The position numbers and the translations under genes are program-made. Positions 11,883 through 39,672 of a stretch of DNA of 64,000 nucleotides are shown here, piece after piece. Below the pieces are notes generated by a model, which was not told the origin of the DNA, did not search any database, and worked only from the letters and a program-made list of their open reading frames with translations. This DNA is from Deltaproteobacteria bacterium (GTDB taxonomy: Bacteria; Desulfobacterota; GWC2-55-46; UBA9637), in assembly GCA_016219285.1 (NCBI GenBank), contig JACRNJ010000032.1, positions 21,721-85,720 on the forward strand. Reading direction: 5' to 3'. How positions within the stretch are numbered: position 1 is the first letter of the stretch; each line of letters begins with the position of its first letter.

Positions 11883-12075
11883 TGATTTACGAATTACGAT
11901 TTACGAATTACGATTTTAAATACTTCACCTTACTTGCAAATCATAAATCTATACACAGCGACATAAATAGTTGCGCATACAGAGCGTCAGAACAAAGCAG
12001 ACCGAGGAGCAACACAGGTATGCGAAGTTATGACGCTCTGTATAAAATCGTAAATCATAATGGAGGATTGATATA

Positions 12076-12816
12076 ATGCCAAAGGTAGTAGGCGTAAGGT
12101 TTAAAAGGGCGTGCAAAATATATGATTTTGATGTCAATAATCTGGAGCTTAAAACTGGCGAACAGGTCGTTGTGGAGACACAAAAGGGGATGGGTCTGGG
12201 TTGGGTTGCGCGCAGCCCGCTTGACAAACCTGCCCCTGCAAGCAGTAAGCAGAGGGACGAGACAAACCTTGTTCAGCCGTTGAAAAAAGTAATAAGGAAG
12301 GCTACAGGTGGAGATAGGGAGCGGTTTGAATTCAACAAAGAGATGGAAGATGAAGCAGCTGCTGTATGCAGGAAAGAGATAGCCAAACACGGCCTTTCCA
12401 TGAAACTTGTAAATGTAGAATACCTTTTTGACTCAAGCAAGGTCATATTTTCATTTATTTCAGAAAACAGAGTTGATTTCAGGGATCTGGTCAAAGATAT
12501 GGCTAACGAGCTTCATACGAGAATAGAAATGCGTCAGATAGGGGTCAGGGATGAGGCTAAGATGTTAGGCGGTGTGGGCCCATGCGGAAGAATGCTCTGC
12601 TGTTCAACTCATCTTGTGGATTTTGAACCGGTAAGCGTTAAAATGGCAAAAGAGCAAAATATCTCTCTCAATCCTGCAAAGTTGTCAGGTGTTTGCGGCA
12701 GGCTTATGTGCTGTCTTTCGTATGAAGCATCGCAAGATGCCTGTGATTCAGGTTCAAATTGTTGCCATTCTCATAAGCCAGAACAAAGCCAACCATCCTC
12801 TTTACCAGGGGCATAA
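12076..12816 (+). CDS. PSP1 C-terminal domain protein (YaaT/RicT-like)
   Basis: Conserved PSP1 N-terminal region (VVGVRFKRACKIYDFD...) and a Cys-rich C-terminus (CGRMLCCSTH...CGRLMCCLSYE). Position after holB is as in Bacillus yaaT. Confidence 0.75.
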   Translation: MPKVVGVRFKRACKIYDFDVNNLELKTGEQVVVETQKGMGLGWVARSPLDKPAPASSKQRDETNLVQPLKKVIRKATGGDRERFEFNKEMEDEAAAVCRKEIAKHGLSMKLVNVEYLFDSSKVIFSFISENRVDFRDLVKDMANELHTRIEMRQIGVRDEAKMLGGVGPCGRMLCCSTHLVDFEPVSVKMAKEQNISLNPAKLSGVCGRLMCCLSYEASQDACDSGSNCCHSHKPEQSQPSSLPGA

Positions 12817-12822
12817 ATCCAG

Positions 12823-14367
12823 ATGCAGCAAAACAAGAAGGTATTTTACATAACAACGCCCATCTATTATGTCAATGATGTGCCGCATATCGGCCATGCT
12901 TATACCACCGTTGCAGCGGACTGCCTTGCAAGGTATAAAAGGCTCAAGGGGCGCAATGTCCTTTTTCTGACCGGCACGGATGAACATGGACAGAAGGTGG
13001 AGAAGGCCGCAAAGGACAGGGGAAGGACTCCAAAGGAACATGCAGACCTGATGGTGGATAATTTCAAGAACCTCTGGAAAACCTTAAATATAACCAACGA
13101 TGCATTCATACGGACGACAGATGATGGGCATAAAAATATTGTAAGAGAAGTTCTCCAGAAGCTGTGGGGCAAAGGAGAGATAGAGAAACGTTCATATCAA
13201 GGGCTCTACTGTACGCCGTGCGAGAGATTTTGGACAGAAAAGGATATTACGGAAGGCAGCTGTCCTGATTGCAAACGGCCTGTTGAACATATAGAAGAAG
13301 AGAATTATTTCTTCCTCATGTCAAAGTATCAGACGAGGCTTGTTGAACATATAGAAAAGAATCCCGGGTTTATACTTCCGGAGATGAGAAGAAATGAGGC
13401 GTTGGGCTTTCTCAAAAACAGAATCCTTGGAGACCTCTGCATATCACGGCCAAAGGCCAGACTTGCGTGGGGCATACCTCTTCCCTTTGATGAAAACTAC
13501 ACCACCTATGTCTGGTTTGACGCCCTGCTGAACTATTATTCCGCCACGAAATATCTTGCGCCCACAGATACAGAGTGGTGGCCTGCCGACCATCATCTTA
13601 TTGGAAAAGACATCCTTACTACCCATGCGGTTTATTGGTCTACCATGCTTATGGCCCTTGACATGAACCTGCCAAAGAATGTCTTTGCCCACGGCTGGTG
13701 GACCGTGGAAGGCCAGAAGATGAGCAAGTCTCTGGGAAATGTGGTTGACCCAAATGAGATAATTGATAAATACGGTGTTGACCAGTTCCGATATTTCTTA
13801 TTGCGTGAGGTTCCGTTCGGACTTGATGGAGATTTTTCAGTAAATGCATTGAAGGGAAGGATAAACGGGGATTTGGCCAATGATCTGGGGAATTTATTGA
13901 GCCGAGCGCTAACAATGATTGAAAAATATTGCGAGGGTAAAATTCCTGCTTATAGCTTTAATATTAGTACGGAACAGCAGAGTGAAGCCAATATCAAAAA
14001 CCGTTTTCCTATTGATATAGACCTTCACATGGGCAACCTTCAATTCCATCTGGTTTTGTTTGATATATGGTCTGTTATAAATAGTATGAACAGATATATT
14101 GAAGAAACTACGCCGTGGAAGGTATATAAACAAGGAAATAAAATAAAACTCAACGACATTCTTTACACCCTTGCCCAAGGTTTGAGAATAATTGCAATTT
14201 ATCTTTATCCCTTCATGCCATCCACTGCTGAAAAGATATGGCAACAGCTTGGCTTGGAAAAAAGTTTCAAAGGCATAGATTTTGATGAAGAAGTAACATG
14301 GGGCAAAGACATCAGCGGCACAAAGGTGTGTAAAGGAGATGTGCTGTTTCCTAAAGTAGAGACTTAA
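12823..14367 (+). CDS. metG: methionine--tRNA ligase
   Basis: HIGH motif (PHIGHAYT), a zinc knuckle CTPCERF...CPDCKRP, and KMSKS. Length 514 aa. Confidence 0.95.
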   Translation: MQQNKKVFYITTPIYYVNDVPHIGHAYTTVAADCLARYKRLKGRNVLFLTGTDEHGQKVEKAAKDRGRTPKEHADLMVDNFKNLWKTLNITNDAFIRTTDDGHKNIVREVLQKLWGKGEIEKRSYQGLYCTPCERFWTEKDITEGSCPDCKRPVEHIEEENYFFLMSKYQTRLVEHIEKNPGFILPEMRRNEALGFLKNRILGDLCISRPKARLAWGIPLPFDENYTTYVWFDALLNYYSATKYLAPTDTEWWPADHHLIGKDILTTHAVYWSTMLMALDMNLPKNVFAHGWWTVEGQKMSKSLGNVVDPNEIIDKYGVDQFRYFLLREVPFGLDGDFSVNALKGRINGDLANDLGNLLSRALTMIEKYCEGKIPAYSFNISTEQQSEANIKNRFPIDIDLHMGNLQFHLVLFDIWSVINSMNRYIEETTPWKVYKQGNKIKLNDILYTLAQGLRIIAIYLYPFMPSTAEKIWQQLGLEKSFKGIDFDEEVTWGKDISGTKVCKGDVLFPKVET

Positions 14368-17831: not shown

Positions 17832-20146
17832 TTATCCAGCGCCTCTCTTATCTTTGTTAAAAGCTCATTCGGCGCTATTGGTTTTGGAAGAAGAACAAAT
17901 CCTGGTTTAAGCAAATCTTTTGCCTTTATCACATCCGCTGTATATCCGCTTATAAAGATGGCCTTGATATTTAGGTCTAACTTTTTTATCCCTTCATAAG
18001 CCTGTCTGCCGTTTAGTCTTGGCATTATCATGTCAAGGATAAGGAGATTTATTTCATCTTTTTTATCAGTAAATTTGCTTATCGCATCTATTCCATCCAC
18101 AGCCTCTATAACCTTATAATTATATTCTTCAAGCACAGCTTTTATTGTTATTCTGCTGTCAGGGTCATCCTCTGCAACAAGAATGGTTTCCATATTGCCT
18201 TTTGGAGCGGCAGCCTCCGTCTCTTTCTTTTTACCCAAGACGCCTTTTTCTAACAGAGGCAAGTATATTTTAAATGCTGTGCCCTGCCCCGGTTCGCTGT
18301 AGACATTTATATAGCCGTTGTGTTGTTTAATAATACCATAGACCATTGACAGTCCAAGCCCTGTGCCTTTTCCAACCTCTTTGGTTGTGAAGAATGGCTC
18401 AAATATCCTTGATTGAATATTTTTATCAATGCCGATGCCTGTATCTGCAAAGGTTATAAGCGCATATTGTCCTTGAATACCGTAATCGTGGTTGTTTATA
18501 AGGTCATTGTCCAATTTCACACGGCTGACATCTATGGTTAATTTTCCCCCTTCCGGCATAGCATCTCTTGCGTTTGCGGCAAGATTTAAGAAAACCTGTT
18601 CAATCTGAGTGGTATCCATTTTCACTATCAGATTTTTATCTGCAAGGGTTACCTTAAGTTCAATGTGTTCGCCAATCACCCTTGCCAGAATCCTTTCAAC
18701 CATTTTTACAAGTTCATTCAAAAGAGCAGGCTGGGGGTTTATAGCATGTTTTCTGCTGAATGTAAGCAGATCCCTGGTAAGGACAGCCGCGCGGTTGGCC
18801 GAGGTTATTATCTCGCCTGTATATTCCTTTACAAGATTGTCGTCGGGTTTTTTTCTAATCAAAAGGGTTCCATATCCTATTATTGCAGTCAGGATATTGT
18901 TGAAATCATGGGCAATGCCGCTGGCAAGCTGGCCTATTGCCTCCATCTTCTGAGAATGTATTAATTGTTCTCCAAGCATCTTTTTTTCTGTGATGTCTCT
19001 GTATACCACCTGGATAGCTATAATTTTTCCATTCTTAAAAACAGGAGAACCATTTGCCTCTATAATGAAAGGATCCCCGTCTTTCCTTATTGCCTTAAGC
19101 TCTACCATCTCCAAAGTCTTGCTGCTCGCCATATCACAAAAGGCCTGTGAAGCCTTTGGGATATCAGTTTCAGCAATGAAATGCTTGAAGTGTTTTCCTA
19201 TAATTTCGTCGGGTTTGTATCCGGCAACCCTCTCCACCGCCGGGGAGGAGTAGATAAATATTCCATCCATATCTATAATATGTATCGCATCAAAGTTCCT
19301 CTCAACCATACTTCTAAACTTTTCCTCACTCTCCTTCAAACTGTCGGTCATGGTTTTGATATGATACGTCATAGTATTGAATGAGGTTGAGAGCATCCCT
19401 ATCTCGTCCCCGTATAATACCGGCACTGTCTGGGAAATGTCTCCTGAGGCCGCAGCCGTCACCGCCACGTTGAGCTTTTTGATTGGTTTAATGATAACAC
19501 TATAAAGAGCAATAAGGCTCCCCAATACAATGAGGCCGCTTAAAAATAAAAACGCAATTTGTAATTGGCGCAGCCTGTTAATCTTTTTCTCTGAAGGAAT
19601 CTTAAACAACATAACCAATCCATTTATATCATCAAGATATGTAAAAATCTCCTGCCTGTAGTCTTTTAATTTCCCTTTGATTCCCACTTTGTCAAAGGGG
19701 GATACAGGGGGATTATTTTCACTGCTTGATGCAAAAAGCATGTTTTGAAACATTGGCTTTACACTCTTATTCCATTTATCTATATTCTGATTAAGCTTGG
19801 CTATTATTTCAGGCGAGTCTTGCTTCTTAAGGTTATAGCTCTGATTACCGTCTCTGAGTCCGAAGAGGATATCTTCAAACAGATTTATCTCTTTATCAAG
19901 TTCGGTCTTTGCCCCTGCATCCTGTTCTATCCCCTCATCATAATTTTCTGCTAAAAACGCAATCTTCAATAATCTCACCCGCTCGGCACCAACCATATTT
20001 ATGATAACGGAGTTTCCCTTTAATGCAGCCACGGTATTTTCCCATATCATAAACAGCATGAGTTCAAGAAAACAGGCAGCAAACAAAACCACAGCAGTTT
20101 TGAAAAAAAGCGATTTTTTACCTTGGATATTAAACATATTTGTCAC
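17828..20146 (-). CDS. hybrid sensor histidine kinase (TM-sensor-HAMP-PAS-HisKA-HATPase-REC)
   Basis: HisKA H-box LASGIAHDFNNIL, an HATPase G-boxes region (DTGIGI...GTGLGLSMV), and a C-terminal receiver (ILVAEDDPD...LILDMIMPRLNG). Overlaps the downstream response regulator by 4 nt. Confidence 0.85.
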   Translation of the reverse strand: MTNMFNIQGKKSLFFKTAVVLFAACFLELMLFMIWENTVAALKGNSVIINMVGAERVRLLKIAFLAENYDEGIEQDAGAKTELDKEINLFEDILFGLRDGNQSYNLKKQDSPEIIAKLNQNIDKWNKSVKPMFQNMLFASSSENNPPVSPFDKVGIKGKLKDYRQEIFTYLDDINGLVMLFKIPSEKKINRLRQLQIAFLFLSGLIVLGSLIALYSVIIKPIKKLNVAVTAAASGDISQTVPVLYGDEIGMLSTSFNTMTYHIKTMTDSLKESEEKFRSMVERNFDAIHIIDMDGIFIYSSPAVERVAGYKPDEIIGKHFKHFIAETDIPKASQAFCDMASSKTLEMVELKAIRKDGDPFIIEANGSPVFKNGKIIAIQVVYRDITEKKMLGEQLIHSQKMEAIGQLASGIAHDFNNILTAIIGYGTLLIRKKPDDNLVKEYTGEIITSANRAAVLTRDLLTFSRKHAINPQPALLNELVKMVERILARVIGEHIELKVTLADKNLIVKMDTTQIEQVFLNLAANARDAMPEGGKLTIDVSRVKLDNDLINNHDYGIQGQYALITFADTGIGIDKNIQSRIFEPFFTTKEVGKGTGLGLSMVYGIIKQHNGYINVYSEPGQGTAFKIYLPLLEKGVLGKKKETEAAAPKGNMETILVAEDDPDSRITIKAVLEEYNYKVIEAVDGIDAISKFTDKKDEINLLILDMIMPRLNGRQAYEGIKKLDLNIKAIFISGYTADVIKAKDLLKPGFVLLPKPIAPNELLTKIREALDK

Positions 20147-26930: not shown

Positions 26931-27404
26931 ATGAAGAAAGGCAGAGTATTTTATATCGCACTATTTATTACGATTTTTGCGGCAGGCTGGTTCCTTTTTG
27001 GAAATGTTTTTTCTGGCGCAGAGATGGCTGATGATAAGAAGTTGTCAAAGGGTATATCCTACCACAGAGAAAAAGAAAAAATGGAGAACATAATGCAGCA
27101 GAATTTTGCACATGTCCATACAATGCTAAATGGGCTCATATATAGCAAATCCGATATTATCCTGGATGCAGCCCAGTTGTTAAGGAAACATGCATATGAA
27201 CTAAAACAATTAAAGCCCGATAAGAATCTGGGAAATATTAAAATATATCAATTTCTTGCAGAAGACTTGATTGCGCATACCGATAACATCATATTAGCTG
27301 CTAAAAATAATAATCTTGAACTTATTTCCACAGAGCTTGGAAAGATGGTAAACGAATGTGTTACATGTCATATAAAATTCAGAGATAAGCCTATTCAGAA
27401 ATAA
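26931..27404 (+). CDS. class II cytochrome c (cytochrome c-prime-like)
   Basis: Signal/anchor segment, a helical body, and a single CxxCH (CVTCH) six residues from the C-terminus, which is the cytochrome c-prime architecture. Confidence 0.55.
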   Translation: MKKGRVFYIALFITIFAAGWFLFGNVFSGAEMADDKKLSKGISYHREKEKMENIMQQNFAHVHTMLNGLIYSKSDIILDAAQLLRKHAYELKQLKPDKNLGNIKIYQFLAEDLIAHTDNIILAAKNNNLELISTELGKMVNECVTCHIKFRDKPIQK

Positions 27405-27453
27405 ACCTTGTCGGGAATGCATTTTCTGGGTGAAGCCGTAAAAGGAGATTTGG

Positions 27454-28122
27454 GTGGAAAATAATGAATATAAGGCAGTAAAGGTATGGGATTGGCAGAC
27501 AAGGATTTTGCACTGGTTTAATGCAATACTCATTATTACCCTTGCCATACTTGCATTTGGTTTTGAGATAGCAAAGGAGCTTGGCATGCCAAAACAGGGG
27601 AGAGGGGTCTTAAAGGAGATACATGCAATAATCGGCTACTTTTTTGTTGCCACCTTTACCTTGAGGATTTTATGGGGTTTTCTTGGGAATGAATATGCAA
27701 GATGGGGTGATATCATCCCTTACCATAGAGAGAAATGGCAGATGATAGGCTCTCATATAAAGTGGTATTTAAGCGGTTTTAAGGCAAAACCGCCGATTAT
27801 CCCAGGGCACAACCCCGTTGCTTCCCTTTTCTATATTTTTTTATTTATTATTCTAATCAGCCAGGTGATTACAGGCCTTACCCTTGCCGGCCTTGCATTT
27901 GATTTTTTCCCGGGCTCATTATTCTTTAGCGGATGGAGTGAAGGGGCAAAAGAGGCTTTGGAAGATGTTGCTGAAGAAATCCATGAATTTGGCTTTTTCT
28001 TCATTATATTATTTCTTGTTGCGCATATTGGCGGTCTGGTTGTTCATGAGATAGGTGAGAAAACAGGGCTTTTTTCCTCAATGATTCACGGAAGAAAGTA
28101 TTTGCCGAAGGATGGCGATTGA
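27454..28122 (+). CDS. cytochrome b561 / Ni-Fe hydrogenase b-type cytochrome family membrane protein
   Basis: Four transmembrane helices with conserved His residues in helices 1, 2 and 4 (HWFNAIL...HAIIGY...HIGGLVVH). Length 222 aa. Confidence 0.7.
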   Translation: MENNEYKAVKVWDWQTRILHWFNAILIITLAILAFGFEIAKELGMPKQGRGVLKEIHAIIGYFFVATFTLRILWGFLGNEYARWGDIIPYHREKWQMIGSHIKWYLSGFKAKPPIIPGHNPVASLFYIFLFIILISQVITGLTLAGLAFDFFPGSLFFSGWSEGAKEALEDVAEEIHEFGFFFIILFLVAHIGGLVVHEIGEKTGLFSSMIHGRKYLPKDGD

Positions 28123-28142: not shown

Positions 28143-29489
28143 TTATTTGGCGCTGACCGGTATTGTAAACCTAAAAGTGGTTCCTTTGTCCAGTTCACTT
28201 TCTATTGAAATAGTGCCGCCGTGCCTCTCAATTATATGCCTTGTCATGGCAAGGCCAAGACCTGTGCCTTTTGTTGTTTTTATAACATTACCAGCCCTGA
28301 AGAATTCTTCAAAGATGTGCGGCATGTCATTTGACGGTATGCCAATCCCTGTATCTTTTATCTCCGCAATAATGTAGCCATTTTTTCGTGAAACCTTTAT
28401 CCAGACATTTCCTCCATGTTGAGTATATTTGAACGCATTGGCAATGAGGTTTAGGAAGGCATAGGTTATTAATTCCCTGTCAGCCTTTATATCTGGCAAC
28501 TGCGCATCAATTTCTATGTTTAACTGTATATCCTTTTCTCCCATCTTCGACGATGCAATCTCCACAGCGGTATCTATAGCCTCTTTTATATTAAATATCT
28601 TCAGATTAAGATTTTTCTCCGCCCTTATTCTGGAGAGATCAAGAAGGTCTTTTGCATAATGATGGAGAAATTCTGTTTTTTTCTGAATTCTCTGCAAAAC
28701 CTCTTTTACCTTTTCATCAAGGGTACCGGCAAACCCGCCTATCACTACCTCCAAAAGGCTCTGAATGGAGGCAAGGGGAGACTTTAAATCATGGCTGACC
28801 ATCTTTACATATTCATCTTTAAGTCTATCCTTTTCCAATAATTTCAGGTGAGCCTCCTCTAACTCTTTTTCCCTGTTTTTAAGCTTTTCTGCCAGGGATG
28901 CAGTGAAAAAGGTGGCGATGAAAATGGTGGATGTCAATACGAATGATATAGCTGCCGTATATATCTTATTTTTGTAAAGGTCTATGCCCAAAAATCCATT
29001 TACAGAGTGGTGAGGTAGAGTGTTTAGATATTCAAGCGTAAAGAGGCCGACTGTCAGAATAGAAATAATGCATGCCTGGATATAGGCCTCTTTTTTTGAG
29101 AGGAGCATGCTCGTAAGTATAGTATGGAAGATGAAATAAAATATAAATGGGTTTTCAGCGCCGCCTGTAAAGTGTATGAGAACAGTCAGGCTCAAAATGT
29201 CCAGCATACTCTGAAGAATCGCAAATCTCCGTATGGTCTTATGCAGATTGCCGGCAGATCTCTTGTTTATATAAAACTTAAAAATGGCATTATAAAGAGC
29301 TATGAATATGGCGATGAGATATACAGGAAGGTCAGGAAAGGAGACATTGAATAGATAGATAGACGTAAACGTTGCGGCAATAATAAATATCACAGCAGCC
29401 CAGCGTATATTTATGAGCCACTTTAGTCTTTCTACGAGTTCTTCTTGCCACAGATCTGTCTTATGCACATTTGTTTGCAGTTGCCGCAT
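28143..29489 (-). CDS. membrane sensor histidine kinase
   Basis: N-terminal 5-6 transmembrane segments, HisKA H-box MVSHDLKSPL, and an HATPase (DTGIGIP...GTGLGLAM). Confidence 0.85.
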   Translation of the reverse strand: MRQLQTNVHKTDLWQEELVERLKWLINIRWAAVIFIIAATFTSIYLFNVSFPDLPVYLIAIFIALYNAIFKFYINKRSAGNLHKTIRRFAILQSMLDILSLTVLIHFTGGAENPFIFYFIFHTILTSMLLSKKEAYIQACIISILTVGLFTLEYLNTLPHHSVNGFLGIDLYKNKIYTAAISFVLTSTIFIATFFTASLAEKLKNREKELEEAHLKLLEKDRLKDEYVKMVSHDLKSPLASIQSLLEVVIGGFAGTLDEKVKEVLQRIQKKTEFLHHYAKDLLDLSRIRAEKNLNLKIFNIKEAIDTAVEIASSKMGEKDIQLNIEIDAQLPDIKADRELITYAFLNLIANAFKYTQHGGNVWIKVSRKNGYIIAEIKDTGIGIPSNDMPHIFEEFFRAGNVIKTTKGTGLGLAMTRHIIERHGGTISIESELDKGTTFRFTIPVSAK

Positions 29490-29530
29490 TTATTGGGCTT
29501 ATTAAAGGCGCCGATAAATCGGCACACTAC
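29476..29530. mobile_element. MITE-like element, degenerate copy
   Basis: gcagttgccgcatttattgggc...ggcgccgataaatcggcacactac. Confidence 0.55.
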
Positions 29531-29913
29531 TTTTTCCTAAGAAGTTTTTCAACTTTTACAAGCAGGTCTTTTGGTTTTATGGGTTTTTCAACCAATTCAT
29601 CCACTGGCAGATAATCTTCGTCGGTTTCTTTGCTGAATTTAAAACCAGTCTCTTTGCCTATAGATGTAAGCATAAGTATTGGTATCTTGGAAAGCTCCGC
29701 ATGGTTTTTTAATTTGTAGCTTGTTTGAAAGCCCTGATCCTTGGTTTTCATTACAACATCAAGGATTATGAGGTCTGGCTTCTCCGCCTCCGCTTTTTTA
29801 TAGCCAGCGTCGCCTTCACTGGCAGATATGACTTTATAACCCTTACTTTCAAGCACTATCTTGATTGCTTCAACTATATCAGCGTCATCGTCAATAATTA
29901 GGATTTTGGACAT
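29527..29913 (-). CDS. single-domain response regulator (CheY-like receiver)
   Basis: ILIIDDD...DLIILDVVM...LMLTS with Asp and Lys at canonical positions. Length 128 aa with no output domain. Confidence 0.85.
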   Translation of the reverse strand: MSKILIIDDDADIVEAIKIVLESKGYKVISASEGDAGYKKAEAEKPDLIILDVVMKTKDQGFQTSYKLKNHAELSKIPILMLTSIGKETGFKFSKETDEDYLPVDELVEKPIKPKDLLVKVEKLLRKK

Positions 29914-29996
29914 AATTCCTCCGCACTTAAAACAGGTTGGGGTTTAGGCTAAGTATTTTTTCCTCAGCCTTAACCTTGACCTTAATCTTTATGCTT

Positions 29997-31298
29997 TTAT
30001 ACAAACCTTACATCCATTATATGCGTAGAGCACGAAATACACGGGTCATACGCCCTGACCAGTGTCTCAATATTTCTCACTATCTCATGCTTTGGCTTAT
30101 CTAAAATTGTCGGCACAAAACCCCTTAAATCTTCTTCTATCATGCGCAGGTTTTGGGCAGTCGGTATAATGCAGTTTGCATCTGTTACAATGCCGTTCTT
30201 GTCAATAGTATATTCATGATACAGGGTTCCCCTCGGCGCCTCAACAATGCCTACGCCTGTGCTGCGCCCGGAGTGCGGCAGCTTTGGTTTTTTTAATTCT
30301 TCTTTTTTAAGGCCGCTTGATAAGAGTTTATCTATCAGCTTTATGGCATCCTCTGTGCAGTGGAATGACTCCACAAGTTGTGCGGTATTATTCATAAACG
30401 GGTTGAAGCAGAGGGGAGTAAGGCCCAGTTCTTTTGCAGCCTTTTTTGCCTTTGGAGAAAGCTGTTTAAAGTTATTGCATACCCTCGCAAGGGCGCCTAC
30501 CATATAAATACCTTTCTTACTTTTTGTATGTTTTGCGGTGGAGTAAGGGACAATGCTCTCTTTTATAAGTTTTCTGTAGTCCCTTGGTTTAGTGCTGTAT
30601 TTCAGGTTTGAAACCATATTGCCGTCATAGAAGGCAAACTCCCCCTCTTGTTTCAGCGACAGATATTCTCTTTCTTTAGAATATTCCAATGTCTTAAAGC
30701 CTTTGAAAAGTTCAAGCGTGGCCTCCAAATCTTCAAATGAATCTTCAAGTTTTTTCTTCAAGGTTTTCAACTCGCTGATTTTCGGCAGATGGGCAACGCC
30801 TCCTGGAAAAAGGGAAATAGGATGTATGTGTCTCCCTGCAATGATTTCGCATATCTCATTGCCAAGTTTTTTAAGTCGCAGTCCGCGTGTTACAGCATCA
30901 GGATTGGTCTTTGTCAAAGGCACGACACTGCCAACCTTGAAAAAATCCGGCAAGACAAGAAAATAGAGATGAAGGATGTGGCTCTGGAGTATTTCTCCAT
31001 GAAAGGCGAGTTTTCGCAATAAAGTTGCCTGCTTTGAAATGGTTATGCCGAGGGCATCCTCAATCGCCTTGAGCGATGCCGATGTATGGCTTACAGCGCA
31101 TATCCCGCATATCCTTGACATGATATGCTGAGCCTCATCATACTTTCTGCCTCTGAGCATTGCCTCATAAAACCGTGGAGACTCCACAATCTCAAGCTTC
31201 AGCTCTTTTATGACGCCCTTCTTAATATCAATAACCACATTCCCGTGTCCTTCAACACGGGTGATGTGGTGGATGTCTATTTTAATGTTTTTGTGCAT
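29997..31298 (-). CDS. [NiFe] hydrogenase large subunit (group 3-like, cytoplasmic)
   Basis: L1 motif RICGICAVSH near the N-terminus and L2 motif DPCISCSTH near the C-terminus. Only 7 residues follow the His. Length 433 aa. Confidence 0.9.
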   Translation of the reverse strand: MHKNIKIDIHHITRVEGHGNVVIDIKKGVIKELKLEIVESPRFYEAMLRGRKYDEAQHIMSRICGICAVSHTSASLKAIEDALGITISKQATLLRKLAFHGEILQSHILHLYFLVLPDFFKVGSVVPLTKTNPDAVTRGLRLKKLGNEICEIIAGRHIHPISLFPGGVAHLPKISELKTLKKKLEDSFEDLEATLELFKGFKTLEYSKEREYLSLKQEGEFAFYDGNMVSNLKYSTKPRDYRKLIKESIVPYSTAKHTKSKKGIYMVGALARVCNNFKQLSPKAKKAAKELGLTPLCFNPFMNNTAQLVESFHCTEDAIKLIDKLLSSGLKKEELKKPKLPHSGRSTGVGIVEAPRGTLYHEYTIDKNGIVTDANCIIPTAQNLRMIEEDLRGFVPTILDKPKHEIVRNIETLVRAYDPCISCSTHIMDVRFV

Positions 31299-31362
31299 AA
31301 GAGGTTTATATGAGTATTGAATGACTCTGTTTGTTCTGCCTGTAAGGGTCTGAAGGCAGCCA

Positions 31363-31554
31363 TCATGTCTTTTCGTATGCCTTTATGAAATCGTCTCTTG
31401 AAATGCCAGCTTGTGTGCAAATTGTTCTTAATGTGGAAGCCTTTATTTTGGGATGATTTGGCATGGTCAAAGGAGTTTTACTACCATCAGGGTTCTCCCG
31501 CACCATTGAGATATGTTCTTTTTCACGAACGATACGGAAACCTAAGATTTCCAA
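31363..31554 (-). CDS. hicA: HicA-family toxin (mRNA interferase)
   Basis: 63 aa with the pattern GF...E..HI.M....DGSKTPLTMPNHPKIKASTLRTICTQAGIS, typical of HicA/YcfA. Immediately downstream of hicB. Confidence 0.6.
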   Translation of the reverse strand: MEILGFRIVREKEHISMVRENPDGSKTPLTMPNHPKIKASTLRTICTQAGISRDDFIKAYEKT

Positions 31555-31602
31555 TGCCTTTACTACTTTCCGCTTTGTGGCGTCAACTGGAAACTTAGGT
31601 AT

Positions 31603-31827
31603 TTAAGCATCTACCCCTGTTTCGGCAACAAATGCCTCAAGGATAGGTGGTTCAATATCAAGGCCTTCTTCTCCAAAAGTCTCTATATGAAAACGGATTG
31701 CGGATTTAACATCCGCCAACGCCTCTTCGTATGTATCACCTTGGCCAACTACAATACTCTTGATTCCTAAAGGATATGCAACATAGCCATCAGTATGTTT
31801 TTCCACTATTATTTTATACTGTTTCAT
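31603..31827 (-). CDS. hicB: HicB-family antitoxin
   Basis: 74 aa with YKIIVEKHTDGYVAYPLGIKSIVVGQGDTYEEALADVKSAI, typical of the HicB N-domain (UPF0150). Confidence 0.65.
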   Translation of the reverse strand: MKQYKIIVEKHTDGYVAYPLGIKSIVVGQGDTYEEALADVKSAIRFHIETFGEEGLDIEPPILEAFVAETGVDA

Positions 31828-31890
31828 ACCATCTCCTTTGATTTTCTTTTGATTGAATTATATAACAAAAAAATGATTTGTTCATCATTT

Positions 31891-32100
31891 TTAAATGTTG
31901 CCTAACGTGATTGGTCTTTGTGAAGTCCCGCCCTTGGCGGGATTTGGGCGAATGAAGTGAGTCACAAACACCCTGTTATCTGCCGTTGCAGGCAATCTTA
32001 AAGTAAATCCATCCAATTTTTCTTCAAATGCTAAAAAGCAAGACCTGACCCCCATGCCCTCTGCTGGCACAGATACCAATCTTTCGCGTGACAATTTAGA
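31891..32100 (-). pseudogene. vapC: C-terminal half of a PIN-domain (VapC) toxin gene, displaced by the RAYT element insertion
   Basis: ...LDGFTLRLPATADNRVFVTHFIRP resembles the PIN C-terminal D..IAATA...LVT.N..DF region. It lies immediately outside the left inverted repeat of the RAYT element, while the N-terminal half lies outside the right inverted repeat. Confidence 0.45.
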
Positions 32101-32101
32101 G

Positions 32102-32723
32102 GTAGGTTGGGTTGAGCAAAGCGAAACCCAACAATTCATTCATACCCTACATCCTCATCAAATTGAATCTCACAACCTGCCCCCCAATCGCTCTTGTAAA
32201 TGCCCTGTTTAACATAACGATGAAAACTTGAATATGCCCAGTCGCGTGGCAATGTTACCAGACTATGTTTAACAGGATTGTAATGGATGTAATTACAATG
32301 CGCCTCAAAATCTTTCTCGTCTCTAATCTGATGCTCCCAAAACCGCCTCTGCCAAACCGCTTGTTCTCCCTTACTTAATTTTGAGGCAGATCTAAAGCCT
32401 TTATATCCATCCTGACATTGTCTGCTAAAATAGCTTTTTATAAGCCCCCATCGCAGAGAAAAATCATTATCGTTGTGCGGCAATGTCCAGATACAGTGAA
32501 TATGATCGGGCAGCAAAACAAATGCGTCAATCCGAAAGGTGTGTCTGTTGATAACATACTGAAACGCTTCTTTTATCAACCGTATGTTTGCTTCATGGCA
32601 TAAAATCCTTTTCCTCCCGTGCGTTACCACCGTAAAGAAAAATGCCGCCCCTTTTGCCTTTGACCTGCGATAACGCATTGCTTTTTATGATTATGTTGGG
32701 TTTCGTTCCTCAACCCAACCTAC
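32102..32723. mobile_element. RAYT (REP-associated tyrosine transposase) unit bounded by hairpin inverted repeats
   Basis: Left end is gtaggttgggttgagcaaagcgaaacccaaca. Right end is tgttgggtttcgttcctcaacccaacctac, its inverse, and each end is an 8-bp-stem hairpin. The unit encloses one transposase gene. Confidence 0.8.
32136..32678 (-). CDS. REP-associated tyrosine transposase (IS200/IS605 TnpA-like, Y1 HUH family)
   Basis: HuH motif LPDHIHCIW and catalytic Tyr region NYIHYNPVKH. Length 180 aa, which is longer than IS200 TnpA and typical of RAYTs. Confidence 0.8.
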   Translation of the reverse strand: MRYRRSKAKGAAFFFTVVTHGRKRILCHEANIRLIKEAFQYVINRHTFRIDAFVLLPDHIHCIWTLPHNDNDFSLRWGLIKSYFSRQCQDGYKGFRSASKLSKGEQAVWQRRFWEHQIRDEKDFEAHCNYIHYNPVKHSLVTLPRDWAYSSFHRYVKQGIYKSDWGAGCEIQFDEDVGYE

Positions 32724-32898
32724 CAACTTCAGTAAGGGTTATGACAGAAGAAAAAGCGCTCAATCTCTCTGACTGAAAAGAATCAACCACTTCTTTGGCA
32801 ATTGATCCAAACTGAGGATTAGCTTCGATGTAATAAATGATGGGCGCTGTATCTATGAAAATAGTATTTATTTGATCAAGTTCATCCGAGAGGGTCAT
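32710..32898 (-). pseudogene. vapC: N-terminal half of PIN-domain (VapC) toxin gene truncated at the RAYT element boundary
   Basis: IFIDTAPIIYYIE has the first PIN Asp and ITLTEV has the second acidic residue. The ORF ends inside the right inverted repeat of the RAYT unit. Confidence 0.5.
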
Positions 32899-33119
32899 AT
32901 CCGATCCTCTCTCAAACGATTAACATACTCTTGAGCATCTTCACCTTTCCATAACCCTTTCCCAAGGCCATAGAGTTTATTCCAGTCAAGTTCCTTTTTC
33001 ATAGCAAGTCCTGTCTTGCCTAATTGATGAACAAGCCTTTCTACTAATTTTAACTGTTCCTGAGGCGTAAGTTTTCCTATCTCTTTTCCAATCTTTTCTA
33101 AGGTAACTCCTTTTTTCAT
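32895..33119 (-). CDS. putative antitoxin partner of the disrupted PIN toxin
   Basis: 74 aa, 4-nt overlap with the vapC fragment, positioned upstream as antitoxins usually are. Family not recognised with confidence. Confidence 0.35.
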   Translation of the reverse strand: MKKGVTLEKIGKEIGKLTPQEQLKLVERLVHQLGKTGLAMKKELDWNKLYGLGKGLWKGEDAQEYVNRLREDRI

Positions 33120-33577
33120 TTTAACCCCCTTTCTTTAATTTATTATCATTCTCCAAGGTAAACAAATATGTCTGTATTATAATATCAACACAAAAGTTTT
33201 GCTATATTATTAAAGCGCCCCAAAAATAGATATTGATTTTTTGAGAAACCTGCAAGTCCTTGACAGACGTTTCACCTGTCAAGGGCAAGTTGGCTGTTAG
33301 ACAACACACCCCTAAATCCCCTCTCGAGAGGGGACTAAAGGGGCGTGTTATTTACAACGAGCCCTCCCCCTTTATCCCCCTCATGGAGGGGGACAGGGGG
33401 AGGATACGGTGAGGAGCAAAGATGTGCCGATAACGAAGTATGGCAGGCAAATCGCAGGTTTGTAAAATAGCGAGGTTTTTAATCGCTATTTTACGGAAGT
33501 GCTTAATGGTGTCTGACGTGTTCATAGGCGAATAATTCGCTTTTTTATTTGGGAACAGTCTCCTTGGAAGTCTTTTC

Positions 33578-34342
33578 TCATTTGCCTTCCCCATGCCTCT
33601 CCCACCCTCCATACAAATCAAATTTGTTTACTACCCCTTCTGCTGTCAATCCGTATCGTTTCAAGGTTTCCTCATGCGCCTCTATATTCGGGTCATCAAC
33701 CAGTCCTCTACATCCCCAGCATACACAGCCGTAGGTAACACATATTGCGGAGCAGCCTGCGCGTGTAACCGGGCCCACGCATGTCATGCCTTTTTCAAAT
33801 ACACAGATATTTCCTGCCATCTTGCAGTCAACACATACAGGGTAATTGGGTATTTCCGGTTTTTTGCCAAGAAGCAGAGACTTGAGCACATCCAGGAATT
33901 CTGATTTTGTTATGGGACAGCCGTGGATGTAGTAGTCTACAGGGATTACAGCATCAATCGGCCTTGCAGGTATGGTATCAAGGTGTTTGTATTTTTTAGC
34001 CTTGTCGCCATAAACGACTCTTTGCACCTCTTCCATGGGGAATCTATTTTTAAGGCAATTCAGCCCTCCGGTTGCAGAACATGCGCCTAAGGCCACAATA
34101 ATCTTTGCCTTTTCCCGTATCTTTTTAACCTCTTCTATCTCATGGTTTCTGCTAACGCTTCCTTCAATGAAGGCAATGTCATAGTCATCCCGTTTTTCAT
34201 CAATGGCCTCTCTGAAGTTTACGATGTCAACAAGGCTTAATATATCGGGGAGTTCGTCCTCGCATGCAAGGACCTGAAGCTGGCAGCCTTCACAGCAGGT
34301 GAAGGAGAAAAAGGCGAACTTGGGTTTGTGTTTGGTTTTCAT
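33578..34342 (-). CDS. [NiFe] hydrogenase small subunit (group 3-like, no Tat signal)
   Basis: N-terminal proximal-cluster motif FTCCEGCQLQV, as in group 3 delta/MvhG/FrhG small subunits. There are additional C-terminal Cys clusters. No twin-arginine leader is present. Confidence 0.85.
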   Translation of the reverse strand: MKTKHKPKFAFFSFTCCEGCQLQVLACEDELPDILSLVDIVNFREAIDEKRDDYDIAFIEGSVSRNHEIEEVKKIREKAKIIVALGACSATGGLNCLKNRFPMEEVQRVVYGDKAKKYKHLDTIPARPIDAVIPVDYYIHGCPITKSEFLDVLKSLLLGKKPEIPNYPVCVDCKMAGNICVFEKGMTCVGPVTRAGCSAICVTYGCVCWGCRGLVDDPNIEAHEETLKRYGLTAEGVVNKFDLYGGWERHGEGK

Positions 34343-34732
34343 GGTTCAATATAGACAAAAGTCCATATGAATGGGTAATCTGTCAAGTGCAAATAGTTTC
34401 TGCCCTCATCAATATTTTGAGGGATATCACAAAACAATAAGGAATACAAATAAAAAGAAAGAAAATGTTCCTTTATCAAACACATCGTCTGTCAAGATTG
34501 TATTGATTTTTAGGTTTAGTTTTGGTAAAAGGCAGAAAATATATTATATAGAGTGTGCTATAGCATCTCACTTTGGACATTTGAAACGATTCACGTTGCA
34601 AAATAGTGATGACGCTTCAAATGCGGAACCAAGAAGTAGAATCTATCGCTGCCTTGCCTGGCATAATAAACAATGTGGAGGTAATATCGTCCACTTTATA
34701 AATTTAGGTGTAGCAAGTTGGAATAGCGGTAG

Positions 34733-34969
34733 TTACATCTTTTTTGCGGGTTCTTCAGGTTTTGTTGCAGACGTAGGTTTTGTTCCTGCGGCAGATTCCA
34801 ATTTTTCCTTTTGGGGAGTTACATCTATCTCTTCTTCGGAAGATGACTTTTTAAAGTTTCTGATAGCCTCGCCAAGACCGCTGCCTATACTGGGCAGTTT
34901 CCCAACGCCAAATATTATCAGGATGATTACAAGGATAATTATAAGTTCAGTTGTTCCTATGCCAAACAT
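34733..34969 (-). CDS. tatA: twin-arginine translocase subunit TatA/E
   Basis: [26 protein letters not shown]...G.G.AIRNFKK is the canonical TatA transmembrane helix plus amphipathic helix. Confidence 0.8.
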
Positions 34970-37341: not shown

Positions 37342-37428
37342 CGGCTTTGTAAAAAGTCCATCTGTGGAGCCTGTTCCGAGCAAAGTGAGAAATCTTGGTC
37401 TTCGCTGCGGCTTCTGCGTTCAACACCT

Positions 37429-37483
37429 GTAGTTTGCCCATTTATGGGCGTTTTTTAAAAGCGCCGATAAATCGGCAGACTAC
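37429..37483. mobile_element. MITE-like element, canonical copy
   Basis: gtagtttgcccatttatgggcgttttttaaaagcgccgataaatcggcagactac. Confidence 0.85.
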
Positions 37484-37530
37484 ACCCATATTCTATAGAT
37501 ACAGAAGAAAGAAAAACCATTTTATTATTC

Positions 37531-37830
37531 ATGGCGATACTTAGTATTGTTTTGTCTTGGAGTTTTTATAATGTAATTAACAGTTATCAAATTATTTTGC
37601 CTTGGTGGGTTGAAAGTCCTTCTGTGTTGTTTTTCTATGGATTACTTTTTGTTGTCTTTGATAAATGGGCTTGGAAATATTTTAGGAAGATCGGTATTGT
37701 AAGAACTCCTAATCTAAATAGGGAGCGGAACGGACATTTAAAATTTTCTTTTGATGAGCATTCATCAGAAATAAAAGCAACTTTACGAATTTTTCAAACT
37801 TGGACAAAAATAAAAACTTTATATCTCTAA
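37531..37830 (+). CDS. small two-transmembrane-helix membrane protein, function unknown
   Basis: ORF only, with two hydrophobic helices. No recognisable family. Confidence 0.3.
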   Translation: MAILSIVLSWSFYNVINSYQIILPWWVESPSVLFFYGLLFVVFDKWAWKYFRKIGIVRTPNLNRERNGHLKFSFDEHSSEIKATLRIFQTWTKIKTLYL

Positions 37831-37943
37831 AAATTAGTCAGACTACCATCAAACACCGCATTGAACAGCGAACTCTATAACGTTGAGGAAAATAGAGGGA
37901 ACAGCAACCATTTAAATTGCCTTTGTCTGTAAGAATATATGGA

Positions 37944-38007
37944 AATAAAATCAGGACAGGCATTTTTCTTCTGTATTGCAAAAGTGGGAAACGCCACAGG
38001 CGCATTA
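37944..38007. repeat. direct repeat DR-left bracketing a toxin-antitoxin islet
   Basis: aatcaggacaggcatttttcttctgtattgcaa...gccacagg. A 35 bp near-identical core is repeated at 39497-39530. Confidence 0.8.
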
Positions 38008-38071
38008 TCTTTCAGAACAAAATGTAAGAGATTGCAATTGTGAAGGGGAAAGGGTAAAATGGAGAAAATCA

Positions 38072-38266
38072 ATGAAAGTGCGTGATATTATAAAGCTGAT
38101 AGAGGCTGATGGATGGTATAGAGTGGACACAAAGGGCAGTCATAGGCAATACAAACATGCATGGAAAACTGGCAGGGTTACTATTGCTGGACATCCGAAC
38201 TACGATTTAGCCCCTGGCACTCTGAACAGCATCTTAAAACAATCTAAGTTAAAGGAGGTAAAGTAG
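38072..38266 (+). CDS. hicA: HicA-family toxin
   Basis: MKVRDIIKLIEADGWYRVDTKGSHRQYKH...GRVTIAGHPNYDLAPGTLNSILKQ is the canonical HicA motif. A GGAG ribosome-binding site lies upstream. Confidence 0.75.
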   Translation: MKVRDIIKLIEADGWYRVDTKGSHRQYKHAWKTGRVTIAGHPNYDLAPGTLNSILKQSKLKEVK

Positions 38267-38479
38267 ATGCATCGTTTTCTTATTGTAATTGAAAAAGCCG
38301 AGGGTAACTACTCGGCATATTCTCCAGATTTGCCGGGTTGCATTGCAACAGGCGCAAGCAGGGAAGAAACGGAACGCAACATGCATGAAGCAATTGAAAT
38401 GCATGTGCGCGGTTTGATAGAGGATAATCTGCCTGTCCCTGTGTCAACATCTTTTGCTGAATATGTGGCAGTTCCCTGA
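38267..38479 (+). CDS. hicB: HicB-family antitoxin
   Basis: FLIVIEKAEGNYSAYSPDLPGCIATGASREETERNMHEAIEMHV is a HicB/UPF0150 fold. Confidence 0.7.
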   Translation: MHRFLIVIEKAEGNYSAYSPDLPGCIATGASREETERNMHEAIEMHVRGLIEDNLPVPVSTSFAEYVAVP

Positions 38480-38506
38480 ACCGGACTTGTATGAAACCAC
38501 GGTAAG

Positions 38507-38707
38507 TTGTCCCTCGCTGCTCAAATCCTCGCCGCCAAAAAGCAACACACCCCTCAATCCCCTCTTGATAGAGGGGAATTACCCAACGCCGATACCTCCG
38601 CCTTTGAGCGTCAGATTGATGAAATGGTTTATAAACTCTACGACCTCACACCGGAGGAGATTGCAATTGTGGAGGGGTTGGATATTGATGTTGACAAATT
38701 ACAATAA
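38507..38707 (+). pseudogene. C-terminal tail remnant of a DNA methyltransferase/restriction-modification type gene
   Basis: ERQIDEMVYKLYDLTPEEIAIVEG is the conserved C-terminal helix of many N6-adenine methyltransferase and type IIG restriction-modification proteins. Only about 66 aa are present. Confidence 0.35.
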
Positions 38708-38778
38708 GCCTATTGATACAACAGTCTGTTTCTGTTATGATAGTCTTAATTCTGGTCAACCAGAAAGGAGGTTAAAAA

Positions 38779-39039
38779 ATGAAAACATTGTCGCTCTCTG
38801 AGGCAAAGATGAAACTAAGCAGCCTTGTGGATTCGGTATATAAAACTGACGAGGAGGTCATCATTACAAAAAACGGCTCACCTGCTGCAGTCCTGATAAG
38901 CCCTGATGAATTTGAAGGATGGAAGGAGACTATTGCCATACGTTCTGATGCTGCCTTTATGGAGGAAATAAAGAAGGGGTTGGCATCCCTGAAAAAAGGC
39001 AGGGCAAAGTTCTATACACTCGAGGAGCTGTTCAGATAG
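38779..39039 (+). CDS. Phd/YefM-family antitoxin
   Basis: MKTLSLSEAKMKLSSLVD...EEVIITKNGSPAAVLISPDEFE is the Phd/YefM signature. Confidence 0.8.
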   Translation: MKTLSLSEAKMKLSSLVDSVYKTDEEVIITKNGSPAAVLISPDEFEGWKETIAIRSDAAFMEEIKKGLASLKKGRAKFYTLEELFR

Positions 39040-39330
39040 ATGAGCATTCTCAGGCTGAAAATGTCTGATGAGATGGCGGACTTAATCCGCTCCCTTCACC
39101 CTGATATAAAACGAAAGATTAAGGCCGCATTACAAACTGTTTTAAGTGACCCCCTGTCAGGCAAGGCATTAAAAGATGAACTTGAGGGACTGCAAAGTTT
39201 TAAAGTGGGGAAGTTCAGGGTGATTTATAAAACAACAAAAGACAAAGGAGTTATTGAAGTTGTAACCATTGGACCTCGAAAAACTATATATGAAGAAACT
39301 TTGAGGCTTTTAAAAAGGGGAAAATTATAA
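39040..39330 (+). CDS. relE: RelE/ParE-family toxin
   Basis: 96 aa. The 1-nt junction with the antitoxin and the pattern ...KVGKFRVIYKTTKDKGVIEVVTIGPRK is the RelE/ParE fold. Confidence 0.75.
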   Translation: MSILRLKMSDEMADLIRSLHPDIKRKIKAALQTVLSDPLSGKALKDELEGLQSFKVGKFRVIYKTTKDKGVIEVVTIGPRKTIYEETLRLLKRGKL

Positions 39331-39490
39331 GACAAGAATTTAGTCTTCTCTGAAGACAGCCTTATCGAACAACCAGCCATTTAGATTTTCAGGTCTCTCG
39401 CCTATGCACATCTGGACTGCTATAACGAAACCTTTGGCGAGACCGGCACTCTCGGCAGAGAGACTTCAACTGATGCTGTTTTAAAACCAG

Positions 39491-39568
39491 AATAAAAATC
39501 AGGACAGGCATTTTTCTTCTGTCTTGCAATCTGTCTTGCAATAGAGAAAAGCCACAGACATATAATGA
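39491..39568. repeat. direct repeat DR-right bracketing the toxin-antitoxin islet
   Basis: aatcaggacaggcatttttcttctgtcttgcaatctgtcttgcaa...gccacagac. The ttgcaa unit is duplicated relative to DR-left. Confidence 0.8.
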
Positions 39569-39613
39569 GTGCATTAATATTCGCAATGTGCTAATCAGTG
39601 CTTGCCAAAATAC

Positions 39614-39642
39614 TTGACAAAATTATTAAGGTATATTAGAAT
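39614..39642 (+). promoter_or_regulatory. sigma70-type promoter for the isc operon
   Basis: TTGACA, then a 17 bp spacer, then TAGAAT, lying 31 nt upstream of the iscR start. Confidence 0.55.
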
Positions 39643-39672
39643 TTTTGCAATTGATTAAACAGTATCAATACT

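Follow-up and report, generated by a model that had tools for sequence, protein, structure and literature searches.

Is a two-gene [NiFe] hydrogenase that stands beside a histidine kinase and a receiver protein, with none of the usual electron-transfer subunits alongside, a sensor of H2 or the displaced core of an ordinary catalytic enzyme? The question is raised by a minus-strand locus in a 64,000-nucleotide stretch of contig JACRNJ010000032.1 (positions 21,721 to 85,720; assembly GCA_016219285.1, Deltaproteobacteria bacterium), referred to throughout as the window, in which the genes for the small (delta) and large (alpha) subunits, hyhS and hyhL, lie 2.3 kb apart. A first-pass annotation had proposed an H2-sensing unit built on a group-3-like scaffold, by analogy with HupUV and its HupT/HupR partners, while retaining as a fallback the idea that the partner subunits are encoded elsewhere. 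The reading favoured here, to which we would assign a probability of roughly 0.7, is that of an ordinary group 3b hydrogenase with an operon disrupted by mobile toxin-antitoxin and transposase cargo; its remaining subunit genes, hyhB and hyhG (hyhBG), most likely lie elsewhere in the genome, and the neighbouring regulator and kinase would serve it as a quinone-redox accessory.

Comparisons were based on open reading frames (ORFs) called in 123 fetched loci and labelled with profiles built from those loci, the labels being checked by Pfam (Fer4_22 for HydB; FAD_binding_6, NAD_binding_1 and DHODB_Fe-S_bind for HydG; HycI for the maturation protease). Loci outside the window's own clade are termed canonical. 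All such counts are among the matches listed in a GTDB scan that under-sampled close relatives and was biased towards query-like sequences; a scan of metagenomes added three full-length close relatives and three fragments, and no more.

Family placement and the whereabouts of the partner subunits

Searches of NCBIfam ranked archaeal sulfhydrogenase subunits first for both proteins, ShyA and HydA leading for the large subunit and sulfhydrogenase HydD providing the best match for the small subunit (8e-62). When compared with solved structures, the hyhL product matched the alpha chains of sulfhydrogenase I best (9nez and 5yxy; 2e-71), followed by Mvh (4e-60) and the NAD-reducing enzyme (7e-50), with bit scores of 244 for group 3b, 207 for 3c, 173 for 3d and, for the top-scoring F420-reducing chain of 3a type, 154. 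When 104 large subunits taken from the fetched loci were placed in a neighbour-joining tree, the window's clade was nested among ordinary 3b enzymes. On all three lines of evidence the group-3-type scaffold originally suggested was confirmed, and could be narrowed specifically to group 3b.

The ligand motifs are in keeping with this placement. The Ni-Fe ligand motifs RxCGxC and DPCxxCxxH were invariant across the 104 aligned large subunits, with all four Ni-Fe cysteines kept; the versions reported earlier for the window, RICGICAVSH and DPCISCSTH, are present as described, as is the tail of seven residues after the histidine (IMDVRFV), a length that is the norm for group 3b, where a dedicated protease of the HycI type cleaves off the C-terminal peptide, and is shared by protease-linked enzymes (e.g., HFLDVKFV). 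The hyhS protein begins MKTKHKPKFAFFSFTCCEGCQ, with the reported FTCCEGCQ motif (as ...FSFTCCEGCQ) and no twin-arginine (Tat) leader, and it retains every one of the 12 Fe-S cysteines that 67 canonical sequences share invariably or nearly so, the distal-cluster ligands included; these features make it a small subunit of the cytoplasmic, Tat-less type with three Fe-S clusters that is characteristic of group 3b. Judged by sequence and structural matches, hyhS and hyhL are accordingly assigned as the Fe-S and Ni-Fe core of a cytoplasmic group 3b [NiFe] hydrogenase. Membership of group 2c, the diguanylate cyclase-linked hydrogenases, was ruled out by the L2 motif, which reads AYDPCISCSTH in the window as against a 2c consensus of SFDxCLVCTVH.

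Pairwise comparisons (dS ~1) gave ratios of non-synonymous to synonymous substitution (dN/dS) of 0.05-0.07 for hyhS and 0.05-0.09 for hyhL, alike in pairs that lack hyhBG at the locus (the window and its sister locus L001) and in pairs that have it (L007 and L087); the equivalent values were 0.04-0.07 for the regulator gene and 0.06-0.18 for hydB, orphan copies included. The hydrogenase, regulator and hydB genes are thus under strong purifying selection, and the hydrogenase genes can be regarded as functional on the strength of their retained metal ligands and low dN/dS. That the split pair is instead a decaying remnant, becoming pseudogenes after the insertion of mobile elements, would be in line with the broken genes at the locus (a truncated vapC and a hicA without its start codon) and with a kinase that occupies two ORFs in L001. 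Such decay is nevertheless most improbable, given that neither hydrogenase gene is broken or has lost a metal ligand, that dN/dS is held at 0.05-0.09 over a dS of ~1, and that the split arrangement persists in relatives down to 75% identity.

The clade to which the window belongs comprises two branches. In the first, W1, the large subunits are 75-100% identical to that of the window and hyhL, regulator and kinase are always found together; in the second, W2, a sister subclade with large subunits 62-67% identical, hyhS and hyhL are followed in five of six distinct loci by a GAF-GGDEF gene and then by HSP20. The protease gene was absent from the locus in every member of both branches. Whereas HydB and HydG are encoded directly upstream in 65 of the 66 loci outside the clade that have enough flanking sequence, W1 itself is divided in this respect: three members 82-89% identical to the window (L007, L087 and L109) carry GAF-GGDEF, a small lipoprotein, HydB and HydG directly upstream of hyhS, and the window, L001 and L119 have no hyhBG there, the position held by HydB-HydG in L007 and L087 being occupied in the window by tatA. 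By blastn, window positions 33593-34477 matched positions 8021-8912 of L001, and homology to L007 and L087 ended at the start of hyhS (34342); from the 135 nt shared with L001 and the point at which homology stops, it follows that hyhBG had already gone from this position when the window and L001 diverged. The shared 135 nt mark the derived, hyhBG-less junction and are a candidate region for an independent hyhS promoter.

The absence of diaphorase and maturation-protease genes alongside the pair, as first reported, extends across the window, since tblastn searches of all 64 kb with HydB, HydG and protease queries were empty. Remnants of hyhB, hyhG or the protease were likewise sought in the gene-poor region 37342-39672 near the Rrf2-IscS cluster, where none was found and toxin-antitoxin pairs were present instead. 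That region, which lies upstream of Rrf2-IscS-NifU, holds one HicA/HicB-like and one Phd/RelE-like small pair; in the sister subclade (L124) hyhBG adjoin the same Rrf2-IscS cluster.

A search for unlinked partners, with the HydB of L087 as query, proved more informative. One match (P0129, 75% identical) lies ~25 kb from hyhS and hyhL on the same 91,314-bp contig as L001, and its surroundings (Aminotran_4, GAF-GGDEF, a small ORF, HydB, HydG and MMPL) correspond to the L007-type block minus hyhS and hyhL. A second (P0217, 57%) shares a 2,993,941-bp contig with a W2 large subunit (P0080), its HydB and HydG standing alone beside Rrf2-IscS-NifU. The third (P0140, 75%) comes from Logan run SRR12113407, one of two runs that hold the window's exact large subunit; at 84% identity it is nearer to the HydB of L001 than to any other match compared, which mirrors the sister relation of the large subunits and makes P0140 a circumstantial candidate for the hyhB of the window's organism. 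With hyhBG beside hyhS in relatives, orphan pairs on relatives' contigs and P0140 itself all pointing in the same direction, the fallback of the first-pass annotation is the version to be preferred: by analogy with these genomes, the hyhBG of the window's enzyme are most likely encoded elsewhere in the genome, and one four-subunit enzyme encoded at two or three loci would be the simplest reading. A large subunit that falls firmly within a multi-subunit group, with its partners outside the window, is essentially the outcome that the annotation had itself named as incompatible with its proposal.

The orphan pairs also bear on whether HyhSL might have switched partners, passing electrons to or from another carrier, such as a ferredoxin or the neighbouring cytochrome b561/cytochrome c' pair, and not HyhBG. 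The window (27454-28122), L008, L120, L121 and L122 do each encode a Ni_hydr_CYTB-family cytochrome b no further than ~5 kb from the hydrogenase, and the distal Fe-S cluster ligands are kept; yet identity of these cytochrome b genes to that of the window is only 30-34% and they are on the opposite strand, the hydrogenase is cytoplasmic while the cytochrome c' has a signal or anchor sequence, and in the same genomes purifying selection maintains orphan hyhBG that have no other hydrogenase next to them. A switch of partners is consequently considered unlikely, and cytochrome b561 was rejected as a hydrogenase partner on account of its low identity across loci and opposite strand. In the window the two plus-strand genes concerned, for a cytochrome c'-like protein and the cytochrome b561, occupy 26931-28122 and are convergent on the kinase gene.

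The GAF-GGDEF protein encountered repeatedly in these loci is of one homologous type (33-38% identity over ~88% of its length) and stays beside hyh genes across the clade, upstream of hydB in L007, L087, L109 and L123 and downstream of hyhL in L004, L008, L009, L120 and L122, its companions being hyhBG in one branch and hyhSL in the second.

The regulator and kinase as an accessory of group 3b operons

The argument for a sensor had rested largely on the association of a bare alpha/delta pair with a kinase and a receiver. Among the canonical four-subunit 3b loci listed, however, 30 of 61 carried a receiver regulator plus kinase downstream and a further five the regulator without the kinase, and a protease gene was present downstream in 48 of the 61. 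The loci are drawn from Anaerolineae and other Chloroflexota, Scalindua and other Planctomycetota, Krumholzibacteriia and Lentisphaeria; those of spirochaetes, Armatimonadetes and Nitrospiraceae have the regulator alone. The window's regulator is 51% identical to that downstream of the Scalindua 3b operon, as compared with 29-31% for other regulators in the window, and the median identity to it of 39 hydrogenase-linked regulators from outside the clade was 46%, values by which the hydrogenase-linked regulators form one type. Since the regulator and kinase follow 30 of 61 complete operons, the pair is not specific to a bare alpha/delta unit; kinase plus receiver is a common accessory of complete catalytic 3b operons. 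The link this suggests, between group 3b hydrogenases and a conserved receiver with a RegB-like kinase, was not found described in the literature searched; around half of the bacterial group 3b operons sampled, from several phyla that include Chloroflexota, Planctomycetota and Krumholzibacteriia, carry a receiver and a six-helix RegB-like kinase.

Hydropathy analysis of the window's kinase indicated six helices, with GGAENPF at residues 109-115 in a short loop between helices 3 and 4. In RegB, the ubiquinone-binding motif GGXXNPF is located in the periplasmic loop between helices 3 and 4 (PMC3000548), and the window's kinase therefore has the RegB motif in the equivalent position. It also has an arginine in helix 1 (NIRW), with no glutamine seven residues on and no cysteine in the cytoplasmic part, and it aligned over its full length with the ActS/PrrB/RegB profile NF033792 (2.4e-34; 118.9 bits against a cut-off of 350). 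The strict NPF form of the motif was confined to the W1 kinases and L073; elsewhere among hydrogenase-linked kinases the motif reads GG..SP[VAL] or GG..NPL, and in Anaerolineae the protein has a GAF domain as well. Because the kinase carries RegB's quinone-site motif, membrane redox sensing is proposed in preference to H2 sensing, and the analogy suggests a protein that is RegB-like in sensing the quinone or membrane redox state while not being a RegB orthologue. If the kinase does read the quinone pool, it would offer a testable route from respiratory redox state to H2 venting or uptake. In L001 the kinase (11995-13288) is in two pieces, a membrane portion of 169 aa and a detached kinase core, owing to either a frameshift or an assembly error.

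The alternative in which the HyhSL dimer senses H2 and signals to the kinase and receiver next to it (in the sister subclade, to the GAF-GGDEF protein), much as HupUV does with HupT/HupR, has a number of observations in its favour: hyhL, regulator and kinase form the invariant core of W1, their genes in some members being 9 nt apart or overlapping by 4 nt; GAF-GGDEF follows hyhL in five of six distinct sister-subclade loci with no hyhBG beside it; no clade member has a protease gene at the locus; and selection on the genes is strong. We nonetheless consider it improbable. Regulatory hydrogenases of group 2b have a large subunit that ends at the histidine, with no C-terminal extension, and they signal through a soluble PAS kinase (HupT/HoxJ) and an NtrC-type DNA-binding regulator (HupR/HoxA). 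The window's large subunit, by way of contrast, keeps the family-typical extension of seven conserved residues, its small subunit is normal in length and clusters, its kinase is membrane-embedded without a PAS domain, and its regulator has no DNA-binding output. Moreover, the same regulator and kinase accompany complete, protease-bearing four-subunit operons at the frequency given above, and hyhBG are found at the locus in close relatives, while orphan hyhBG pairs share genomes with such hydrogenase genes. The proposal of an H2-sensing unit on a group-3 scaffold was accordingly not supported.

A related view would have the clade in transition from a catalytic to a signalling hydrogenase, HyhSL having been freed of hyhBG and of a linked protease and welded to kinase and receiver or to GAF-GGDEF. 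We give this little credence; were it true, HyhSL would report H2 or the cytoplasmic redox state to a phosphorelay or to cyclic di-GMP, and would constitute the first group-3-based H2 sensor. The practical implication for annotation is that, where an alpha/delta pair stands alone next to a kinase, unlinked partners should be sought across the entire genome before the pair is called a sensor.

The interval between hyhS and hyhL

The 2.3-kb interval had been described as a selfish insert that splits the gene pair; comparison with other loci showed that it is not a single recent insertion into a once tight pair. In all six close relatives within W1 in which both genes were visible, hyhS and hyhL were separated by 995-3279 bp, whereas in 71 other 3b loci the median separation was -4 bp and the maximum 186 bp. 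A gap of 1-3.3 kb is thus an old trait of the lineage, and a hot spot for the exchange of cargo. The gap in the window holds vapB, a vapC interrupted by a REP-associated tyrosine transposase (RAYT) element, and hairpins of the repetitive extragenic palindromic (REP) type, together with the hicBA pair that it shares with L087, L088, L089 and L109; L001 has hicB alone. A BamE-like lipoprotein gene is present in the gaps of L007, L087, L088, L089 and L109, the last of which has in addition an extra hicAB-like pair and a 230-aa ORF, and the gap of the 75%-identical relative L119 (4875-7898) contains SIR2_2, a defence-type domain, a DUF433 antitoxin-like gene and a YtkA-like gene on the opposite strand. 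The site shows that strong selection can act on the genes of an enzyme even as cassettes for toxin-antitoxin, defence and transposase functions are gained and lost in the space between.

The hicBA block (31290-31987) showed 94-99% nucleotide identity to L087, L089 and L109, as against mostly 69-89% per 100-nt window for hyhL (one such window reaching 94-96%), the step falling exactly at the hyhL start codon. The cassette must therefore be far younger than its host genes and have been swapped between lineages, and the pattern suggests recent lateral exchange into the same site. A 22-nt palindromic core, TTGCCTGCAACGGCAGATAACAG (31971-31993), recurs between cassettes in L001 and, in either orientation, in L087, L088, L089 and L109; as the homology breakpoints between loci fall in or near it, the core may mediate cassette turnover. 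A GTTAGGC box had raised the possibility of an integron attC site upstream of hicB, which was dropped, with no formal test, when the shared part turned out to be the 22-nt palindrome in both orientations and no integrase was seen.

In L119 and L002 an opposite-strand gene precedes hyhL, and hyhL must therefore have its own promoter there. In the window, the scan revealed no terminator-like site between hicA and hyhL, and a promoter-like match upstream of hicB belongs to a class of matches that was not above chance.

Positions of the individual features are collected in the table. Domain and profile searches upheld the minus-strand gene order of the first-pass annotation with the exception of the ORF (31891-32139) that had been called a vapC C-terminal half, which lacks PIN similarity and is better described as a repeat-bearing spacer: it gave no PIN match either alone or when joined to the N-terminal half, and tblastn with an intact PIN homologue matched the N-terminal half only, with nothing downstream of the RAYT element. 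A toxin-antitoxin pair in L002 was rejected as a relative of this ORF, the two being unrelated and devoid of homology. The RAYT element interrupts vapC at around codon 57, the ORF ending inside the left REP arm, and only residues 1-57 are recognisable of what in VapBC systems is a complete PIN domain with all its acidic catalytic residues; the antitoxin that precedes it is clearly similar to that upstream of a PIN gene on a Nostoc plasmid. The RAYT gene is flanked by a 19-nt inverted repeat, 95% complementary (I2), as is typical of RAYT/REP elements.

Adjacent HicA and HicB domains identify the hicBA pair, the HicB match being weak in the window and clear in its orthologue. The hicA start codon (31600-31602), ATG in four relatives, reads ATA in the window; as the same base was present in two independent assemblies, the HicA toxin has probably been disabled here by loss of its start codon. 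Two independent Logan assemblies were 100% identical to the window over 28997-32153 and 29628-32020, and the junction between RAYT element, hicBA and large subunit is therefore not an assembly artefact.

Table. Features of the hydrogenase locus (window coordinates; listed in minus-strand order)
Feature	Position	Strand	Basis
tatA	34733-34969	-	Pfam TatA_B_E 1e-16
Upstream region of hyhS, 135 nt	34343-34477	-	Common to window and sister L001 only (blastn)
hyhS, small (delta) subunit, group 3b, cytoplasmic, 254 aa	33578-34342	-	Oxidored_q6 1.9e-26
Two G/C-rich REP-like hairpins directly downstream of hyhS	33309-33404	.	Inverted repeats I1, I8, I13, I19
vapB-like antitoxin, 74 aa	32895-33119	-	Weak Unstab_antitox and TIGR02574; similar to antitoxin of Nostoc plasmid PIN pair
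vapC (PIN) toxin, 5' fragment only	32710-32898	-	tblastn 42% to residues 1-57 of a 147-aa PIN protein
RAYT element, inverted REP arms included	32101-32724	-	Arms 32101-32119 and 32706-32724
REP-associated tyrosine transposase gene	32136-32678	-	NF047646 1.8e-57, 193 bits (cut-off 80); Y1_Tnp 1e-07
Repeat-bearing spacer (formerly 'vapC C-half')	31891-32100	-	Holds 22-nt REP-like core
hicB antitoxin	31603-31827	-	HicB_lk_antitox 0.0015 (weak); L001 orthologue with HicB Pfam matches
hicA toxin, start codon mutated	31363-31602	-	HicA_toxin 6.3e-08, 33 bits (cut-off 27)
hicBA cassette with leader and 64-nt spacer to hyhL	31290-31987	-	Exchanged block, nucleotide identity
hyhL, large (alpha) subunit, group 3b, 433 aa	29997-31298	-	NiFeSe_Hases 1.1e-38
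Stand-alone CheY-like receiver regulator, 128 aa	29527-29913	-	Response_reg 8e-18, no output domain
Membrane histidine kinase, 448 aa, six helices	28143-29489	-	6TM_PilS, HisKA and HATPase_c

The hairpin region directly downstream of hyhS has a 42-nt match in L007, located inside hydB. Further G/C-rich REP-like hairpins (of the CCCCT...AGGGG type) were noted in the window at 19696-19712 and 38550-38565. Where hairpins of this kind occur inside coding regions, as in hydB and hyhL of L007, they appear as short in-frame Pro/Gly-rich inserts (e.g., PPVSPFDKVG), two of which account for the 450-aa length of the L007 large subunit. An Rfam scan of the window returned zero RNA families.

The proposed scheme and its relation to known systems

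On the favoured reading, an ancestral hyhBGSL operon would have been taken apart in this groundwater 'Deltaproteobacteria' lineage, with the hyhS-hyhL gap as a long-standing site of entry for cargo of toxin-antitoxin, defence and REP/RAYT type. The products of hyhB (Fe-S) and hyhG (FAD and NAD(P)) would be supplied in trans from another locus to complete a bidirectional, NAD(P)-coupled enzyme; hyhS would stand alone, and hyhL would be transcribed with the regulator and kinase, in the window probably by read-through from the hicBA cassette. The kinase, by reading the redox state of the membrane quinone pool, would tune expression or activity of the hydrogenase via the receiver, such that surplus NAD(P)H might be vented as H2, or H2 used.

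Certain findings weigh against this scheme. The presence of hyhBG in the window's organism is circumstantial, being argued from co-occurrence in one run and from analogy with the sister genome, and neither a maturation protease nor hyp genes were located for any clade member. The figure of 30 of 61 for regulator plus kinase derives from the matches listed, in a sample skewed to query-like sequences. Equivalents of Gln38 and Cys265 of RegB are absent from the kinase, whose NCBIfam RegB score of 119 is far under 350, and the regulator has no DNA-binding domain. Finally, promoter-like matches numbered 23 as compared with 16.9 +/- 5.0 expected from shuffled controls, and the terminator scan was likewise not above expectation. 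The remaining interest of the locus lies in a dispersed yet selected operon, in a long-lived cargo site and in the widespread link of group 3b hydrogenases to a RegB-like pair.

Of the systems with which the locus can be compared, group 3b HyhBGSL (sulfhydrogenase I of Pyrococcus and Thermococcus; 9nez, 5yxy) is the closest, being the best match for both subunits and sharing the Ni-Fe motifs, the 12-cysteine small subunit without a Tat leader and the seven-residue tail after the histidine; the full B-G-S-L order is moreover present in close relatives of the window. The window differs in that its genes are dispersed, with hyhBG unlinked, hyhS and hyhL 2.3 kb apart and no protease at the locus, and it scores far under the NCBI equivalog cut-offs for the archaeal enzymes (298 against 700). 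Group 2c putative sensory hydrogenases (HydDB) resemble the sister subclade, which likewise has GAF-GGDEF directly after hyhL; they differ in that orphan hyhBG occur in the same genome as the GAF-GGDEF-linked hyhL of that subclade. The RAYT element conforms to known RAYTs with flanking REPs, having the same Y1 transposase between inverted REP hairpins and no notable difference, the window's copy lying inside vapC.

Likeness to RegB/RegA (PrrB/PrrA) extends to the six membrane helices, the GGxxNPF loop, the helix-1 arginine and the full-length profile alignment; the conserved Gln38 and redox-active Cys265 are without counterpart in the window's kinase, which scores under the family cut-off and whose partner regulator has no helix-turn-helix. 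Group 2b HupUV/HoxBC offers the parallel of a cytoplasmic two-gene hydrogenase beside a histidine kinase and response regulator, but is of another hydrogenase group with other motifs, and the window's enzyme retains its C-terminal extension and belongs with a regulator-kinase pair that also accompanies full catalytic operons. HupT and HupR are similarly distinct, the counterparts in the window being a six-helix membrane kinase without PAS and a receiver-only regulator with no NtrC-type output.

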